Shown: in pieces, positions 5,701 through 52,921 of the stretch
Numbering within the stretch: position 1 is the first letter of the stretch
Layout: every line of letters starts with the position of its first letter
NCBI GenBank assembly: GCA_905182405.1
Contig: CAJJBQ010000002.1
Coordinates: 1,534,483-1,598,482, forward strand
Length of the DNA: 64,000 nucleotides
Direction: 5' to 3'
Origin: Akkermansiaceae bacterium
GTDB lineage: Bacteria > Verrucomicrobiota > Verrucomicrobiia > Verrucomicrobiales > Akkermansiaceae
Notes under the pieces: model-generated
Seen by the model: the letters and a program-made list of their open reading frames with translations, nothing else
Told to the model about the DNA's origin: nothing
Database searches by the model: none
Translations under genes and position numbers: made by a program

Positions 5701-6106
5701 CGTCCACCACGCCTCTCTCGCAAACCCCTACATGCCAGTTCAAAACATGGACGTTCTCACCATTTTAGGATTCGTCATCCTCGCCGGAGTCGTCGTGAAC
5801 AACGCTATCCTCATCGTCCACCAAACAATCAACTTAATGAAAGAGAACCCCTCCCGCGATACCAACGAAGCCATCCGGGAATCCGTCACTTCCCGCGTCC
5901 GCCCCATTCTCATGTCCACCCTCACCTCAGTAGGAGGAATGCTCCCCCTCGTTCTCCTCCCGGGATCAGGATCGGAACTTTATCGGGGCCTCGGAGCCGT
6001 CGTCGTCGGCGGACTGGCAGTCTCCACGGTCTTTACCATGTTCCTCGTTCCCACCGTCCTCTCCCTCGTCTTCGCCTTCAGCAAACCAAAAGTGAAAACT
6101 GCCTAA
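2732..6106 (+). CDS. Efflux RND transporter permease subunit (AcrB/HAE1 type)
   Basis: 1124 aa with a 12-TM layout and two large periplasmic loops. Motifs VGMVVDNAIVVIENI and GFVILAGVVVNNAILIV are present. Confidence 0.95.
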   Translation: MSIQKSSQGGIIANAISQPITVAVATLLAVFAGILAVTVVPIRMTPEVSSVVVSVTTNWESASADEVESDIIEEQEKVLGEVTGLISLTSTSANGQGSIRMEFETGTDIEKATSDALQKLDEVPGYPDGVLQPTVEPVDIDSVDYIAWIGLASTDPDFPAETLNDLMERRIRPRFERIDGISQVGVRGSVQSELHIIVDPVAMAQRGITYAALRQAITSANANFSGGKLADGKRDIRVRATGRFQDPESVENMVVRRNDSGTIYLRDIATVETAFKERTSWVRARGIQMPFFNFQLERGANLLESMETLRNEVKKLNAPGGLLAQEARDLGMSGTLELVQTYDSTTYVEDAIDLVRSNILVGAVLATLTLLFFLRSLRTVGIIALAIPVSVIASLVVLVALGRSINIISLAGLAFAVGMVVDNAIVVIENIYRHLEFGKKPRQAALDGSKEVAGAVVASTMTTLIVFAPILLIQEIAGQLFRDIALAIMVSVGLSMIVSLTLIPAAAARFLSPPKKEGDSSFDRLFSGKFFRIIGAPFRPIAMLFNSLPRIIGGTVGWLIAGTLRRLTVVIVFLLITFFGVKILLPPLDYLPSGNRNLVIGLLFPAPSYNLEALKETGKRMESTIAPAWEATEDKFQVERIMRGSERDPDQDSRVEVPRPYGQPGTVMPPPLDHYFLVSFEGRMLQVAISADKTRVIDTIPLLNQATAGGAAPDTIAFAFQVPLFRVAGTTGSAIKIDIKGNDLDSVAKTATGLFMTFLQKFGPGKVNTSPPNFNQPLEELRIVPNDERLRELGMTRTDLGLAVQAAGEGILLFRDFEKNGELKDMKIITQGALEKRPFEALLSTPIATPGGSIIDLSSLATLQKTLGPEQIRHVDRLRAVTIEVTPPTGMALEQAIDKVEGIITAQQASGAIAPGVQVQIAGSSDALGEIKEALLGDGSFFGLFTSSLFLALFVVYLLMVVLFQSWSYPLVIILSVPLATVGGLLGLFLVHHASLANPYMPVQNMDVLTILGFVILAGVVVNNAILIVHQTINLMKENPSRDTNEAIRESVTSRVRPILMSTLTSVGGMLPLVLLPGSGSELYRGLGAVVVGGLAVSTVFTMFLVPTVLSLVFAFSKPKVKTA

Positions 6107-6125
6107 CTCTCACTTCGCCACCGCC

Positions 6126-7508
6126 ATGCGCCTTCCTTTTTCAAAAAGCCTCCTCGCCCTCTCCTGCGCGATCATCGCTTCCTGCACCTCCGTTGGGCCT
6201 GACTATCAAAAAACTGACACCCCGCTCCCCCCCTCCTACAAGGCCGTCGGACTTTCAACTCCTCCCATGACCGGAAAATGGTGGTCCACCTTTTCCGACC
6301 CCACTCTCTCCTTACTCCTCATCAAGGCCGAAAAAGCGAACCCTCAATCCTTAACCGCTCTCGCCCGGCTGGATCAAGCCCATGCCATTTTAGGAATCAC
6401 CCGCTCTGAGCGCATTCCACGCCTCACTGCGGAGGCCCTTGTCACCCGCCAGCAAGACTCCACCCGCGACGTATTCCCGGTCCCCTCCGATTCCTACTCA
6501 CGCTACCGCTCCGCGTTAAACCTGAGCTACGAAATCGATTTCTGGGGCCGCGTCCGCAGATCCATCAACCAGCAAGAAGCGCTCACCCAAGCAGCAGGAG
6601 CCGACTACGTCACCGCAATGCTCTCGACCAAAGCGGAAGTCACCCGCGATTATCTGGCCCTTCGGCATCTCGATGACGAAATCTCTCTCCTCTCCGGAAC
6701 GATCAAACTCCGCCAAGATAACGAATCTCTCGTCAAAGCTCGGGTCGACGCCGGTGCCACTACCTCCATCGACTCAGCCCGCGCTCAAAGCCAAACCGAA
6801 ACAACCCGCGCCGAACTCTTCCGCCTTATTCAGCGCCGCCGCGAGCTCGAAAATGCAATCGCCGTGCTCATCGGCCAAAATCCTTCTAGTTTCAAACTCC
6901 CTCTGGGTTCACCACCCCGAACCCCAAACATCCCCAGTGGAGTTCCCGCCGATCTGCTACGACGTCGGCCCGATGTCGCGGCCACCGAACGACGCCTTGC
7001 CGCGGCCGCCGAGCAAATTGGTATCACCATCGCCAGCTACCTCCCCAAAGTCACCCTCACGGGCGCAGGAGGTTATGCCGCCCTCCAATCCTCGGACCTT
7101 TTTAATCAAAGTAGTCGACTTTGGTCGATCGGACCCACCATCACTGGCCCCATCGTCACCTTTGGCCGAAAAGACCGCGACATCGAAATCGCGCAAGCAC
7201 GCTACCGCGAAGCACTCGCCCTGCATCGCGACTCCGTCCTCAACGCCTTCCGCGATGTCGAAAATGCCCTCTCTGGAATCAGTAATCTCGACCAAGTCCT
7301 CATGGCCCAGCGGAAATCATCCGACGCCGCTGACGAAGCATCCCGCCTTACCAAACTCCGATATGACGCCGGTCTCGTCTCTTTCTTTGAAATCATCGAC
7401 GCGCAGCGTGAAGGTCTTCAAGAAAAGCGGGCCCTGAGCCAGACCCGCGCCGCTCGCCAGCAAGCCACTGTCCAACTGATCCAAGCCCTGGGAGGAGGAT
7501 GGAAATGA
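6126..7508 (+). CDS. Efflux transporter outer membrane factor lipoprotein, NodT family
   Basis: It has a lipobox (IIASC), a two-repeat OEP architecture and a C-terminal ALGGGW. It is the last gene of the efflux operon. Confidence 0.9.
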   Translation: MRLPFSKSLLALSCAIIASCTSVGPDYQKTDTPLPPSYKAVGLSTPPMTGKWWSTFSDPTLSLLLIKAEKANPQSLTALARLDQAHAILGITRSERIPRLTAEALVTRQQDSTRDVFPVPSDSYSRYRSALNLSYEIDFWGRVRRSINQQEALTQAAGADYVTAMLSTKAEVTRDYLALRHLDDEISLLSGTIKLRQDNESLVKARVDAGATTSIDSARAQSQTETTRAELFRLIQRRRELENAIAVLIGQNPSSFKLPLGSPPRTPNIPSGVPADLLRRRPDVAATERRLAAAAEQIGITIASYLPKVTLTGAGGYAALQSSDLFNQSSRLWSIGPTITGPIVTFGRKDRDIEIAQARYREALALHRDSVLNAFRDVENALSGISNLDQVLMAQRKSSDAADEASRLTKLRYDAGLVSFFEIIDAQREGLQEKRALSQTRAARQQATVQLIQALGGGWK

Positions 7509-48010: not shown

Positions 48011-49261
48011 TCACCAGCCCAGCTTCTCGAGCACTGCCACGCTCGTACGAACGGCTAACGCCAACGCGACAATGAAGCCTACCCAGCCAAGGGAAATGAT
48101 CCAACGAGGAACCTTCCGCTCGCCCGTGAGATCAGGGCGCGTTCCAAGATAAAGAAGCGCCAAAGCCAACGCAGGCAGCCCCAGAACCGTGAGTGCTTGA
48201 GCGAAGGTGATCAGATTGACTGTGCTAGCAGCATCACTCAAATTGAACAGCGCAACGATAAGGCCGCACAGTAAAGCGACGGTCGTCAACGACAGAGTCC
48301 ACCCTTCTCCCAAGCGTGAACCTTTCCCTAAAGAATCGGAGAGCACCGTCCCACCAACGAGCGCATTCACGAGGAAGGAACTGAAAGCGCCCGCGAAGAT
48401 GCCGAGACAAAAGATAACTTTCGCCCACGTCCCAAATAGAGGTTGTAACTGCATCGCCACGTCGCCGACTCCAGACAAGACAACCGGGTCAGGACGGCCA
48501 TGGAAAACTCTCGCCGCAGTCATCAGGATAACAATCGAGACCACCCCCACCACACTAATACTGATGACGGAATCAAAAAGACCACGTTGTGCATCAGGCA
48601 ACTTCCACCCTTTTTCCTTAACCAGGTATGCTTGGTAGAATGCACCCCCAACAGAGAATGTCGTCCCCATCAAACCCAGCAATACGATAACATCAGGTTC
48701 CTGTTTCGAGGAAACCGGCATGTAGCCGCGTGGACTTGAAAAAACGACGAGGAAATTGATCAAAAAAGCCACGACCATCAAGCCGATGAGCCATTTCATC
48801 AATGATTCAATCGAGTCATAAAGATGACGCATCCGGTAGAAGCAAAAAATAACAACCGCATTAAACGACACCAGAATGATGGCCGGAGTCGCTCCTGCAG
48901 TCAGAGAGAAATCCTCGGAATCAAAGAGCGGCGCGAGACCAGAAATTATGGCAACATTATTGGAATACTGAAAGATTGCCACGAGCGCGAAAAGAATGGC
49001 CCCCACAATGACGGAAACAGGTCGACCGAGACGCCTCGCAAGTTGGTCACAGGGGCTGTCGTCATAGATCACTCCAATGCGCGCAGACAGAGCCACCATC
49101 GCAATCATAAGAATGACCGCCAAAATAATCGCGGTCACAGCCGGGTAACCATATTGCGCACCAACCTTGGAACTCGTCAAAATGGAGCCGGGACCTAGGA
49201 CAATCGCCGCAACGATAATTGCGGGACCAAAAGAGCTGAATAGCTGTTTGAGACGTTTCAT
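48011..49261 (-). CDS. Nramp-fold (MntH-related) transporter lacking the canonical metal-binding residues
   Basis: FGPAIIVAAIVLGPGSILTSSKVGAQYGY aligns with E. coli MntH [29 protein letters not shown], so DPGN becomes GPGS. TM6 GLMGTTFSVGGAFYQA aligns with GVLGATIMPHVIYLHS, so M becomes S and H becomes G. About 11 TM segments. Its start overlaps the nagA-like stop (ATGA). Confidence 0.75.
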   Translation of the reverse strand: MKRLKQLFSSFGPAIIVAAIVLGPGSILTSSKVGAQYGYPAVTAIILAVILMIAMVALSARIGVIYDDSPCDQLARRLGRPVSVIVGAILFALVAIFQYSNNVAIISGLAPLFDSEDFSLTAGATPAIILVSFNAVVIFCFYRMRHLYDSIESLMKWLIGLMVVAFLINFLVVFSSPRGYMPVSSKQEPDVIVLLGLMGTTFSVGGAFYQAYLVKEKGWKLPDAQRGLFDSVISISVVGVVSIVILMTAARVFHGRPDPVVLSGVGDVAMQLQPLFGTWAKVIFCLGIFAGAFSSFLVNALVGGTVLSDSLGKGSRLGEGWTLSLTTVALLCGLIVALFNLSDAASTVNLITFAQALTVLGLPALALALLYLGTRPDLTGERKVPRWIISLGWVGFIVALALAVRTSVAVLEKLGW

Positions 49262-50172
49262 ACCGAAAGACCGATTGCTCGGCGGGGATTGGAGGAAGTG
49301 AGGCGATTAATCTCCTCCGAAGATTTGCCAAGCGAGCCAGCAAGATTTCGACAAACTTGCGGCATGGTAGCTGTTGAACCAGCAAGATAACAAGAGCCGG
49401 GACGGCGGGCAACGCCCTCGGCATCCACCTCAATCTCCATCCCTGACAAGCGATGTGACCCCGGCCCCATCTTGGCCGCGCCGATGGCATCAGTCACCAC
49501 AAAGACACGATCGAGCCCCGCCTGCTTCAAATAAATCTCAAGCGCGAAAAAATCGATATGCGCACCATCTGGAATGAACCCAATCCAAAGCTGATCACTG
49601 AGAGACAAGACACGATTGATGATATTATCGTGACGCGGGAGGTCAATCGGGCAGCCATTTCCCAGATGAGTAAACATCGTCAGACCATTGTCGATCGACT
49701 CCTTCAGCTGATCGAGACTTGGATTGCAATGCCCGGCAGAAACGACCACTCCTTGATCACTCAACGCTTTTATCGTCACCATTCCCGGATCACATTCAGG
49801 CGCCAGGGTTACCAGTTTCACCAAGCCACCCCCGGCCTCGACTAGTCGCTTTGCGTCTGCGGGATTCGCGGGAATCACGGCCTCCGCCGGATGCGCCCCA
49901 ATCCAACCTGCTCCGGGATTCAAGAATGGCCCCTCAACATGAAAACCGTGGATCAAACTGCGCGCGAGTGGATTTCTCTCCCGGAGATTCACCAGGTGTC
50001 GAAGCTTTGCACAGAGTGAATCAACATGATCCGTGATGATGGTCGCCAGGATCGTCTCCACGCCGTCCTCCTTCAAAGCAACACAGGCTCGGTGGAGTTG
50101 TTCATCAGTGAGATCAAGCGAAGAGAAATCAGCTCCCGCATAACCATTGATTTGTAAATCACAGTAATTCAT
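49258..50172 (-). CDS. N-acetylglucosamine-6-phosphate deacetylase-like amidohydrolase (short form)
   Basis: DLQINGYAGADF, GFHVEGPFLN, SAGHCN, FTHLGNG and FVVTDAIGA correspond to the NagA blocks DIQLNGCGG, GLHLEGPWL, AGH, THLYNAM and LVTDA. At 304 aa it begins at the first metal-site strand, without the N-terminal beta-sandwich. Confidence 0.7.
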   Translation of the reverse strand: MNYCDLQINGYAGADFSSLDLTDEQLHRACVALKEDGVETILATIITDHVDSLCAKLRHLVNLRERNPLARSLIHGFHVEGPFLNPGAGWIGAHPAEAVIPANPADAKRLVEAGGGLVKLVTLAPECDPGMVTIKALSDQGVVVSAGHCNPSLDQLKESIDNGLTMFTHLGNGCPIDLPRHDNIINRVLSLSDQLWIGFIPDGAHIDFFALEIYLKQAGLDRVFVVTDAIGAAKMGPGSHRLSGMEIEVDAEGVARRPGSCYLAGSTATMPQVCRNLAGSLGKSSEEINRLTSSNPRRAIGLSV

Positions 50173-51305
50173 CAGCTCTCATCATCAAAGTGGGCACGAG
50201 CGATTTCACGATCAAGCGGGAGATCGACAGGCGCCCCTGTTGCGACAGAGAGCAAGATCCCCCACCCCAATTCCGCAGTCGATGCCGAATTTTCAAACCC
50301 TAAAAACGATTGCTCGCCAGAGCGCACACAGCCGATGAAGTGCTCCACACAAGATCCGGTCTGATGTTGCATCACATCGCCACTATCAGGAGTCGTTGTT
50401 TCTTCACCCCAGAAATGCTCTGACGAACTCGCGGGATCAAGCGGGCGAACCCACTTCCCATCCGTCTCGCTCTCAGACCAATAGCGGACTTTGTGAGAAC
50501 GCTCGAGGTAACTATCGAAAATAAATCCTCCCTTCGTTCCGTGAAGATTATGGTAAGCATCATAACCATTCGCTTGGTCAACATTTCCCAAGGAACAACC
50601 CGAGGCGCCATTGCTGAATTCCACCTGGATATTATAAATGGCATCCACTTCAAAGGGACGTGTTTTCTCCCCTCCGGAAGTTGCGTAAACACGCACCGGC
50701 TTGGCACCCTGCGCCGCCATGATGTTCAACATCACACTCAGAGCGTGAATAATTCCCATCCCAATCGCATCGCCCATGATTTCGCGACTGAGCTTCCAAA
50801 CCTTGTCATCTGAAATATTAATCGGATGACGATAGTTGACCTGCAGCTGCGTGATGGTGCCGAAGGTTCCACCTTTCACCATCTTAAGCAAACGCTGCTC
50901 CATCGGGTCAAAATTCAGGAGGTAATTGACGTAGGTAATCAACTTAGGATAAGCCTTCGCAAGCTCTAATTGCCTTTCAAAATCCGCAAAAGTGGTGGAG
51001 CAAGGCTTTTCACAAAAAACATGCTTCCCCGCTTCCATCGCCGCAATCGATTGGGGGCCGTGCGAACTATTTGGGCTGCAGAGAAAGACCGCATCCACCT
51101 CTGGATTCGCGAGCATTTCCGCATAATCGTCATGGTAGGCCGAAGCCGGAAGACCCATTTCTTCCAACGTCGCAACGGCATTCTCACGAGAACGTTGATA
51201 GAGGGCCACCACCTTGGCATCCGGATGCTCAATCAATCGCTGCATTAAGGTAGATCCCATCCAGCCAGCTCCCACAAATCCGATTCGTATAGGGTTTTCG
51301 CTCAT
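50172..51305 (-). CDS. Gfo/Idh/MocA family oxidoreductase
   Basis: ATG 51305 gives [18 protein letters not shown], a Rossmann motif, followed by the EKP motif FCEKPCS. It overlaps the nagB stop by 4 nt and the nagA-like start by 1 nt. Confidence 0.85.
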
Positions 51306-52042
51306 GATGATAATTTTGAAGCTGCCGGTTGATCGAGATACAGATGGCAATCTGCATGCTTCTGCATGACCGAAGCCGGGACAGCGGGCGTCACGGTACC
51401 CTGCAAAGAATTTGCCACCGCCTCAGCCTTCCGCTCATCAGGCACCGTGCAGACTATCGCCGCGCTCTTCATAATCTGATTTACTGACATCGAGATCGCC
51501 TGCTTCGGGACATCGGCAAAGGTGGGGAACCAGCCTTCTCCAAGCTGCTGCTGACGACACGCGTCATCCAGATCAACGACCAGATAAGGATTTGTCGTTT
51601 CAAAATCTGCCGGTGGATCATTAAAGGCAATATGCCCATTTTCACCAATTCCAATGAATGCGACATCCACCTCTCTCTCTTGAATCAAAGCACCCGCTCT
51701 TTGGCATTCTGCCAAAGGATTCTCCTCACCGCTGAGAAAATGAAATCCACGGAGCGGCAAAGGAAGTTGACTGACAAAACGTTGCCAAAGATACCCTCGA
51801 AACGATGCCGGATGGTCAATTGGAATCCCAACATACTCATCAAGATGGAACCCCGTCACCTGCGACCAATCAATCCCTGACTCAGCAACTAAGGCCTCAA
51901 GCATCTCAAACTGTGACGCACCAGTAGCCACGATAATAGTCGCCTCCCCCTTCTCCTCAATCGCTCGCCGAATATACCCCGCTCCGCATTGCGCCGCCAG
52001 TCGAGCTGATTCTTGTTTTCCCTCTGAAATGTTAATTTTCAT
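51302..52042 (-). CDS. nagB: Glucosamine-6-phosphate deaminase
   Basis: [42 protein letters not shown] and the 246-aa length are typical of the NagB/6-phosphogluconolactonase superfamily, deaminase type. Confidence 0.85.
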
Positions 52043-52359
52043 ATCTTATTTGAGACTCTTGGAATTATGCGGCACCGAGCACCCTTGGTCGAACTCCTTC
52101 TTTCTCCGAGGCGCATCGACCTCGTATTTACGCCACCGCGCGTTCAGTCTCGCCCAAGGGTTGAGGCGTTACCAGCTTCTCACGGTTATCGCCAACATTC
52201 TTCATCCATGCCTTGTTTCGTAAACTCCTGATTCGATCAATAGCCATGAACGGCGGGTCCTTTGAAAAGACCTCGCAGCGAAGGCTTCAACGATCTTGAA
52301 GCTGGGGAGAAAACCCTGCTGGTTGAGTTGATTCCAGACGCTGCTCAAGGCGACCAGTT

Positions 52360-52869
52360 TTAACGAAGGGGAATGCTCCCTTGCCAGCTCGAAATTCCTT
52401 TCGAGCTGATGGTTATGGTAAAATTCGGGCTATATTGCGAAAGCTGAACTCGCCCGGAAGCGCTATAGGAATATCCGTTGCTTCCGTTGAATGAAGCTGA
52501 CGTATATTGTGAGCTATTACGATCGCCGGAAACGGCGAATGACATCTCGTGTTGCTCTCCATTTTCGAGGGTAACCAGAACCCGAAAATCCATGTCGACA
52601 GTGGTAACTTCCTTTTCCCGAATGACGGTTTGCCCCTGGGAATTAGTTGATTCTTGCTCGGTGACCCTCACTCGTTCCCTGACATAGAGACTGCCGAGGC
52701 TTTGCGCGCGTGATACAGGCACCGGTGCGGCTCCTTGGTAAGTTGAGCCGTCGGCTTTCAGCCAAATTCCGTTTCCCTGATAGGAGTCAGGGGCACCACA
52801 TTGAGTGAGCAAACAGACTGATAGAGCGAGCCCGAGGGATTTGAGAGTTTTGCTGAAAAACACGATCAT
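52360..52869 (-). CDS. Hypothetical lipoprotein
   Basis: ATG 52869 gives MIVFFSKTLKSLGLALSVCLLTQCG, which carries a lipobox. No family was recognised. Confidence 0.45.
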   Translation of the reverse strand: MIVFFSKTLKSLGLALSVCLLTQCGAPDSYQGNGIWLKADGSTYQGAAPVPVSRAQSLGSLYVRERVRVTEQESTNSQGQTVIREKEVTTVDMDFRVLVTLENGEQHEMSFAVSGDRNSSQYTSASFNGSNGYSYSASGRVQLSQYSPNFTITISSKGISSWQGSIPLR

Positions 52870-52921
52870 TATGGAAGGAACCCAGCCTTGAGATGACGGC
52901 GTCATCCGTCAAGATTCAAAC

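Follow-up and report, generated by a model that had tools for sequence, protein, structure and literature searches.

The 64,000-nt stretch of Akkermansiaceae DNA analysed here (the window) carries on its minus strand, at positions 48011-52042, an operon of four genes, one of which encodes a member of the Nramp family (PF01566) without the metal-binding residues of that family. The elements of the operon are listed below, the overlaps being read from the sequence.

51302-52042, minus strand: NagB-like sugar-phosphate deaminase/isomerase, 246 residues, heading the chain
51302-51305, minus strand: ATGA stop/start overlap of the nagB-like gene and the Gfo gene
50172-51305, minus strand: Gfo/Idh/MocA NAD(P) oxidoreductase (Gfo), 377 residues counted from the ATG at 51305
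50170-50174, minus strand: TGATG stop/start overlap of the Gfo gene and the nagA-like gene
49258-50172, minus strand: short NagA-like amidohydrolase, 304 residues
49258-49261, minus strand: ATGA stop/start overlap of the nagA-like gene and the transporter gene
48011-49261, minus strand: Nramp-related (PF01566) carrier with 11 transmembrane helices (TM) and a LeuT-type fold, belonging to a GPGS/TTFS clade, 416 residues

The original prediction for this DNA had described four minus-strand genes in the order nagB, Gfo/Idh/MocA oxidoreductase, nagA-like gene and Nramp homologue, chained by ATGA, TGATG and ATGA; the open reading frames (ORFs) and junctions match this description exactly, and the Pfam and NCBIfam matches agree with the order. 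For Gfo, the ORF listing favours an upstream TTG start at 51350; the 4-nt overlap that results from the ATG at 51305 is kept in relatives, and the tight junction between the NagA-like and transporter genes recurs in many of them. Promoter and terminator scans in the operon gave counts at the level of shuffled sequence, and a -35/-10-like site at 52064-52092, upstream of the nagB-like gene, was not significant.

The transporter matches the Nramp model PF01566 with 162 bits (gathering cut-off 29.8), scores 83 bits with the MntH model NF001923 (cut-off 430) and 26 bits with TIGR01197 (cut-off 272), and exceeds the cut-off of NF037982 by 3 bits only; the databases label it “divalent metal cation transporter”. 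In a phmmer search against PDB sequences it aligned over its full length with DraNramp (E=4e-12), in a register fixed by the flanks “G.A.YGY” and “G..G.T”. MDPGN of DraNramp is aligned with LGPGS and GATVMPH with GTTFSVG, corresponding to the replacements D56 to G23, N59 to S26, A227 to T200, M230 to S203 and H232 to G205. This alignment places the two unwound motifs as follows.

49184-49195, minus strand: TM1 motif GPGS (residues 23-26), replacing DPGN
48647-48667, minus strand: TM6 motif GTTFSVG (residues 199-205), replacing GATVMPH

The positions of the proton relay differ as well, with D131 and E134 of TM3 corresponding to N101 and A104 (with less certainty, as the TM3 register contains a gap of 3 residues) and R352 and R353 of TM9 to leucine and serine. 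The glutamine of TM10 is kept (DraNramp Q378 is Q355). E152 and D230, the sole invariant acidic residues inside helices of the clade, are also common to the transporter and DraNramp, and because they are shared they are structural features of the family and not clade-specific ligands.

An AlphaFold model of the transporter, built on a 42-sequence alignment (predicted local distance difference test score, pLDDT, 90.4; predicted template modelling score, pTM, 0.91), has 11 TM helices, of which TM1 (at 22-23) and TM6 (at 202-203) are broken. The top Foldseek match of this model is DraNramp (6D91, TM-score 0.78/0.81), followed by EleNRMT (7QIA, 0.75) and then by ScaDMT, BfraNramp, DMT1 and NRAT, with amino-acid carriers in the APC (amino acid-polyamine-organocation) superfamily appearing only after those; matches to Nramp-family structures have TM-scores of 0.7-0.8 at a sequence identity of 14-22%. 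Structure 9A52, which was tried as a route to the TM1 and TM6 motifs of YcsG, was among the Foldseek matches and was not returned by phmmer against the PDB. The fold is that of Nramp, and no alignment brings back the Asp, Asn or Met ligands. The reading of TM1 as GPGS in place of DPGN and of TM6 as TTFSVG in place of A-x-x-M-P-H, with all three ligands replaced, had been made in the original prediction, and a proper alignment leaves it unchanged.

The substitutions define a clade and are not a one-off peculiarity of this protein. At E<1e-30 an exhaustive HMMER search gave 128 clusters, formed at 50% identity, and residues were counted in 70 full-length clade representatives. Glycine occupies the D56 position in all 69 representatives having a residue there, serine the N59 position in 60 of 70, threonine the A227 position in 68 and serine the M230 position in 52, while Met or His is found in the TM6 motif of no representative. 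Q355 is retained in 63/70. Neutral polar motifs are conserved in TM3 (FQxxNN), TM8 (SSFLVNAxIGG) and TM10 (AQ), and purifying selection acts on the residues that stand in place of the ligands. In the literature the aspartate of TM1 is called “universally conserved in all SLC11 proteins”, and even EleNRMT, a Mg2+ carrier, is crippled when this residue is mutated (PMC8806188).

PF01566 comprises Slc11 proper, an “orphan” outgroup and the NRMT proteins (PMC9606685, PMC10606218). A 2026 preprint speaks of “Nramp-related proteins”, which are paraphyletic and lie basal to the clades that bind metals, and names “G-motif” groups among them (bioRxiv 10.64898/2026.01.27.701978), the placement being also given in PMC9606685; it calls these groups “entirely uncharacterized” except for the NRMT-like proteins and MntG, the latter being a “hypothesized” Mn importer. 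By its motifs the transporter belongs to this published branch, for which the lack of DPGN and MPH is already known. Because the published phylogenies place the Nramp-related proteins basal, this branch probably never had a metal site, its lack being ancestral, and the wording of the original prediction, that the protein has “lost its cation site”, probably has the polarity wrong (PMC9606685; bioRxiv 10.64898/2026.01.27.701978).

With the G-motif or orphan outgroup the transporter shares the PF01566 match, the Nramp fold, glycine at the TM1 aspartate position and the lack of both MPH and the TM3/TM9 proton relay. It differs in the signature of its own clade (GPGS, TTFS(V/I), FQxxNN, SSFLVN), which is also farther from canonical Nramps than are orphans of the GPGT/VPY type (phmmer to DraNramp 4e-12 versus 1.5e-36 for a GPGT protein of Haloferax volcanii). 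Canonical SLC11/Nramp/MntH proteins (DraNramp, ScaDMT, EcoDMT, BfraNramp, DMT1) have in common with it the 11-TM LeuT-type fold with unwound TM1 and TM6, E152, D230 and the TM10 glutamine, and differ in the Asp, Asn and Met positions (here Gly, Ser and Ser), in H232 (here Gly) and in the residues of the proton pathway. The NRMT proteins (EleNRMT, CabNRMT) are likewise non-canonical members of PF01566 with threonine at the TM6 alanine position and no proton pathway, but they keep the TM1 aspartate (Asp55), with glycine at the asparagine position, and are often linked to an M-box riboswitch or MgtE-N (PMC4072509, PMC8806188), whereas the window carrier has glycine and no Rfam match. An Rfam scan of the whole window gave zero matches, hence no M-box or Mn riboswitch, which is weak negative evidence, and no MgtE-like neighbour was seen in the window.

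The sole functional precedent is disputed. C. glutamicum needs PxpT (Cg1142), an Nramp-family protein, to grow on 5-oxoproline (PMC13274462), whereas over-expression of YcsG/MntG raised cellular Mn in B. subtilis (PMC10448178). A role in metal supply has been proposed for MntG (YcsG) within the pxp operon of B. subtilis and also, as cited in PMC10448178, for an A. baumannii operon for urea utilisation that is associated with ycsG. As here, an Nramp-family carrier lies in a catabolic operon beside an enzyme that opens an amide bond, and the same question arises of whether an organic solute or Mn2+ is carried; the partners there are the 5-oxoprolinase PxpABC as against NagA-like, NagB-like and Gfo proteins here, the comparison being one of gene context and not of sequence. 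Neither the window nor 80 related loci contain pxp or hydantoinase genes.

The gene context in turn resembles that of carriers for amino sugars. The known amino-sugar and sialic-acid carriers, NagE of the phosphotransferase system, NagP of the major facilitator superfamily (MFS), the ATP-binding cassette (ABC) system NgcEFG and SiaT of the solute:sodium symporter (SSS) family, belong to families unrelated to the window carrier, which holds a like operon position beside nagA/nagB-type genes. SiaT proteins are LeuT-fold carriers able to take N-acetylated sugars. No Nramp-fold sugar carrier is described in the literature searched.

The NagB-like and NagA-like enzymes of the operon are divergent members of their families. 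The NagB-like protein matches Glucosamine_iso (PF01182) with 70 bits (4e-19) and the nagB model TIGR00502 with 133 bits, under the cut-off of 237, and its closest PDB match is B. subtilis NagB (2BKV, 1.7e-31). LDEYVG and GxNGHIxFNEP motifs are present in the alignment, with Glu replaced by Asp in the latter (FNDP), and the Lys of VPKQAIS and the Arg are kept. A role as 6-phosphogluconolactonase, in an oxidative route from N-acetylglucosamine via a lactone, was considered and rejected, the motifs being of the NagB type and the pgl score 65 bits as against 133-142 bits for nagB. Gfo consists of an N-terminal Rossmann domain (PF01408, 96 bits, 2e-27) and a C-terminal alpha/beta domain (PF22725, 49 bits); its scores with all NCBIfam equivalog models are far under the cut-offs, its closest PDB match is an aldose-aldose oxidoreductase (5A02, 6.5e-25), and inspection by eye revealed no signal peptide.

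The NagA-like protein scores 153 bits with the nagA model TIGR00221 (cut-off 226). Since the match covers model positions 59-348 alone, it is a bare triosephosphate isomerase (TIM) barrel without the N- and C-terminal beta-sandwich segments. Alignment with the NagA proteins of M. smegmatis, B. subtilis and E. coli showed that Q-x-N (as in E. coli), HVEGPF, GAHP, AGH and THLGN are kept, as are the Arg of PRHDN, DGAH and TDA, and comparison with 6FV3 and 2VHL showed the Glu of HxEGP, the two His, the Asp and the Arg all to be retained. We take these residues to be the catalytic and metal-binding set together with the arginine that contacts the substrate phosphate, as in the E. coli and B. subtilis enzymes. 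The PDB matches of the protein are NagA structures only.

The operon is not the only place in this genome (4.36 Mb) where such enzymes are encoded. A canonical NagA (378 residues, 288 bits, above the cut-off) lies at G000:C1:591381 and a canonical-type NagB at G000:C1:267440, the latter with 233 bits just under the cut-off of 236.9. The nagA and nagB genes of the window are divergent paralogs, and they would serve a second pathway and not form the housekeeping nag operon. The original prediction of a nagB/nagA amino-sugar operon thus holds in that NagB-like and NagA-like genes are indeed chained, and has to be revised in that both are divergent paralogs under the NCBIfam cut-offs. The canonical-type NagB is itself part of a second module (G000:C1:261000-275000) with a divergent Gfo, an AraC regulator, an MFS carrier (Nuc_H_symport-like) and a Gfo/Idh/MocA protein. 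In this module the MFS carrier, a conventional sugar-type transporter, occupies the place equivalent to that of the Nramp-like protein, and therefore the combination of NagB, Gfo and a secondary carrier occurs twice in the genome, with carriers of different families. No canonical DPGN-type MntH is encoded in the genome, and its other PF01566 paralogs are likewise without the aspartate.

One of these, a protein of 455 residues with GSGE in TM1, is encoded on the minus strand at 1366-2733 of G000:C2:2177285-2181373, directly downstream of a gene that reads as an enolase-superfamily (mandelate-racemase-like) dehydratase; it may be a sugar-acid counterpart of the window carrier. Another, a PF01566-like protein of 555 residues with GPGW in TM1 and a long insertion, is encoded on the minus strand at 1300-2967 of G000:C1:1551999-1555736, between genes that read as tsaD-like and protoheme-farnesyltransferase-like.

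A scan of one genome per species from 185,579 bacterial and archaeal species gave at least 539 relatives of the transporter. Gene context was counted for the best 80 of these loci, which have 51-79% identity and come from Verrucomicrobiota and Planctomycetota, with NagA-like, NagB-like and Gfo neighbours counted by tblastn, as counting based on ORFs under-counted NagA-like genes. In four loci (L040, L080, L099 and L101) a long antisense ORF lies over the short NagA-like gene and out-competes it when the longest ORF is called, and gene callers may thus mis-annotate this gene in some metagenome-assembled genomes. An ortholog of the short NagA-like gene (51-65% identity) was found on the same strand and less than 900 bp from the transporter gene in 25/80 loci, a NagB-like gene in 15/80, and an adjacent Gfo ortholog (58-80% identity) in 10/80. 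The NagA-linked loci fall into at least 8 separate lineages of a maximum-likelihood tree, in both basal halves and both phyla, and show two gene orders, NagB-(Gfo or TIM barrel)-NagA-transporter and transporter-NagB-NagA. The co-occurrence of the clade with nag genes, put forward earlier as a check, is thus found. Among 31 genomes without the adjacency, 18-19 contain an ortholog of the short NagA-like gene (at least 47% identity) elsewhere.

In 37 loci a co-directional gene lies within 200 bp upstream of the transporter gene. It is NagA-like in 22, an AP_endonuc_2 TIM barrel in four, a creatininase in three, a member of an unassigned family (c36) in three, ceramidase-like in two and Gfo in one. 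The nearest relative (79% identity) has only a Gfo gene before and a Gfo-like gene behind the transporter gene. A sulfatase gene lies within 10 kb in 31/80 loci, and an ABC system and genes of the BNR/sialidase-like, SGNH and SSS types are found repeatedly near related loci.

In loci of the Akkermansiaceae type (L082, L084, L086-L087 and relatives) a BNR sialidase-like gene (~5950-7090, minus strand), absent from the window, is divergent from an operon of NagB-like, Gfo, NagA-like and carrier genes; the N-terminus of its product looks, by eye, like a twin-arginine translocation (TAT) signal. This divergent arrangement, present in about 7 loci, led us to consider a pathway for 2,7-anhydro-sialic acid of the NanOx type. 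It was set aside, as there is no NanA-type lyase, and YjhC (1e-12) and RgNanOx (1e-10) are weak PDB matches.

More distant GPGx proteins have gene contexts of their own. A plasmid of the haloarchaeon Natrononativus amylolyticus (NZ_CP101459.1, 295427-299807) carries an amidohydrolase gene, a Gfo/Idh/MocA gene and then a GPGS/TTFS-type Nramp-related gene, with a sulfatase nearby, and thus follows the same three-part logic as the window operon. On pHV4 of Haloferax volcanii (NC_013966.1, 541791-543008) a GPGT-type Nramp-related gene shares 1 base with the beginning of a hydantoinase/oxoprolinase A/B pair, which parallels in an archaeon the pxpT-pxpABC arrangement of bacteria. A distant GPGx homolog in Neorhizobium lies behind a LacI gene and an aldolase gene of the dihydrodipicolinate synthase (DHDPS) family, and another distant GPGx protein overlaps an M20 peptidase gene with an FGGY kinase adjoining.

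We favour the view that the transporter imports an organic solute of some kind, which we consider about twice as probable as not; that it is, more specifically, a secondary importer for a solute of the N-acetylhexosamine type is an even bet. A pocket formed by unwound TM1 and TM6 with TM3, TM8 and TM10 would contain no carboxylate, Met or His and would be lined by clade-invariant glycine and by the neutral polar stretches GPGS, TTFS, FQxxNN, SSFLVN and AQ. Such a neutral, glycine-rich pocket would suit an organic solute held by hydrogen bonds, in part from backbone amides. The solute would be a carbohydrate-derived N-acylated amine, likeliest an N-acetylhexosamine or a compound closely derived from one, set free from marine glycans that carry sulfate or acetyl groups, and after import it would feed the three co-translated cytoplasmic enzymes. 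Gfo could perform a redox tailoring step or an epimerisation, the short NagA-like enzyme the deacetylation and the NagB-like enzyme the deamination, with a kinase, if required, encoded elsewhere. The direction of transport, the substrate class, the coupling ion and the order of the enzymatic steps are in each case what we infer.

Import of an organic solute is favoured because the partners are amide-opening and sugar-tailoring enzymes in glycan-degrading neighbourhoods and because the pocket is all-neutral and rich in glycine. The contexts in which the partners are independent of metals, namely the Gfo/transporter/Gfo-like arrangement and the LacI and DHDPS-family aldolase genes, also argue for import of a substrate. 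Further support may be seen in the PxpT precedent, in the lack of a metal riboswitch in the window and in the lack of a canonical MntH in the genome.

Several observations weigh against import of an amino-sugar-type solute. Two thirds of the related loci are without nag-like neighbours. In a sample of 251 Verrucomicrobiota genomes (many of one genus with genomes of 2-3 Mb, and too sparse for statistics) the transporter was found at E<=1e-40 in only two and an ortholog of the short NagA-like gene (at least 52% identity) in four, the window's own genome included; in three of these four the transporter is missing, and the NagA-like gene can thus exist without it. Beside the NagA-like gene of these three genomes no replacement carrier was found, only DUF2961, a pectate-lyase-like gene and ExbD. 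The residues that bind phosphate in characterised relatives are retained in both the NagB-like and the NagA-like protein, and the operon encodes no kinase, which would imply either a kinase encoded elsewhere or an anionic (e.g. sulfated or acidic) sugar. For all members of the clade the evidence consists of sequence, predicted fold and gene context, and on balance an N-acetylhexosamine-type solute stands at even odds. Finally, an increase in cellular Mn has been reported for YcsG/MntG, which belongs to a sister G-motif group (PMC10448178), and the site motif stays constant while the fold of the neighbouring hydrolase varies (NagA-like, creatininase, ceramidase-like, M20), a pattern predicted equally well by cofactor supply, as all these partner families are metal-dependent.

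Cofactor supply is the main rival explanation, although we regard it as unlikely. Here the carrier would import Mn, Zn, Co or a similar divalent metal for the metallo-hydrolases that are expressed with it. The commonest direct upstream partners, NagA-like amidohydrolases, creatininases, ceramidase-like proteins, M20 peptidases and AP_endonuc_2 TIM barrels, are all from metal-dependent enzyme families, and besides the unchanged motif and the Mn phenotype of YcsG over-expression in B. subtilis (PMC10448178) the widespread retention of Q355 would fit such a role. However, the unwound segments of TM1 and TM6 contain no Asp, Glu, His, Met or Cys, and glycine invariably stands in place of the aspartate that metal carriers of this family require (PMC8806188). 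Nor would cofactor supply account for contexts with metal-independent enzymes only (the Gfo/transporter/Gfo-like arrangement, the LacI and DHDPS-family aldolase genes, and SGNH/BNR), and no metal-responsive RNA was found by Rfam in the window. The evidence on MntG is also indirect, and the preprint says “hypothesized” only.

Somewhat less probable still is that the solute is organic but not an amino sugar, being instead a small N-acyl amino acid, a lactam related to 5-oxoproline or a sugar acid, in which case the NagA-like protein would hydrolyse amides in general and the operon's sugar flavour would be secondary. In favour of this, APC amino-acid carriers bind carboxylates with a glycine-rich unwound TM1. 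Related GPGx groups lie beside hydantoinase/oxoprolinase genes (H. volcanii pHV4), M20 peptidases and creatininases, the GSGE paralog follows a putative dehydratase gene of the enolase superfamily, and growth on 5-oxoproline depends on PxpT (PMC13274462). Against this, the NagB-like protein has motifs of the NagB and not of the 6-phosphogluconolactonase type, the catalytic set of NagA is retained in the NagA-like protein, whose structural matches are to NagA only, and the partners of the clade are oriented towards glycans (Gfo, sulfatase, BNR, SGNH, sugar-type TIM barrel). The TM6 motif is also different, TTFS(V/I) here as against TTVV(P/G)Y in the oxoprolinase-linked group.

It is very improbable that the adjacency is functionally meaningless (chance or hitch-hiking), or that the protein is an exporter or a sensor and not a nutrient importer: the many loci without nag-like neighbours and the chance-level promoter and terminator scans could be read in this way, but the four genes are tied by three consecutive stop/start overlaps, the linkage is found in at least 8 lineages with adjacency preserved through rearrangements of gene order, and with a single short NagA-like gene in a genome of several thousand genes the chance of repeated adjacency is negligible.

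The name “divalent metal cation transporter” is probably wrong for the whole clade across Verrucomicrobiota and Planctomycetota, and the operon, with the recurring deacetylase-like pairing, provides a concrete substrate hypothesis, open to laboratory tests, for an orphan G-motif branch. If import of an N-acetylhexosamine-type solute is correct, the substrates of the SLC11-type fold would widen from metal ions to sugars, which would bear on the evolution of the metal site within the LeuT-fold scaffold. It would also fill a gap in the uptake of amino sugars and sulfated glycans by marine Verrucomicrobia and Planctomycetes, and would identify a second nag-like pathway consisting of the short NagA, the divergent NagB and Gfo. 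A wider and more tentative proposal, which we think has perhaps one chance in three, is that the GPGS/TTFS clade represents the first Nramp-fold sugar carriers, for N-acetylhexosamine-type solutes from marine glycans, and that its Asp-less G-motif relatives are ancestral carriers whose organic solutes are N-acylated or lactams and whose partner is in each case an amide hydrolase (NagA-like, creatininase, ceramidase-like, M20 or hydantoinase/oxoprolinase), with the metal transport of SLC11 arising later from that stock.

Upstream of the operon and on the same strand, at 52360-52905 of the window, lies an ORF of 181 residues, for which no Pfam or NCBIfam match and, across the 80 related loci, no homolog was found; its predicted product has a lipoprotein-like N-terminus.

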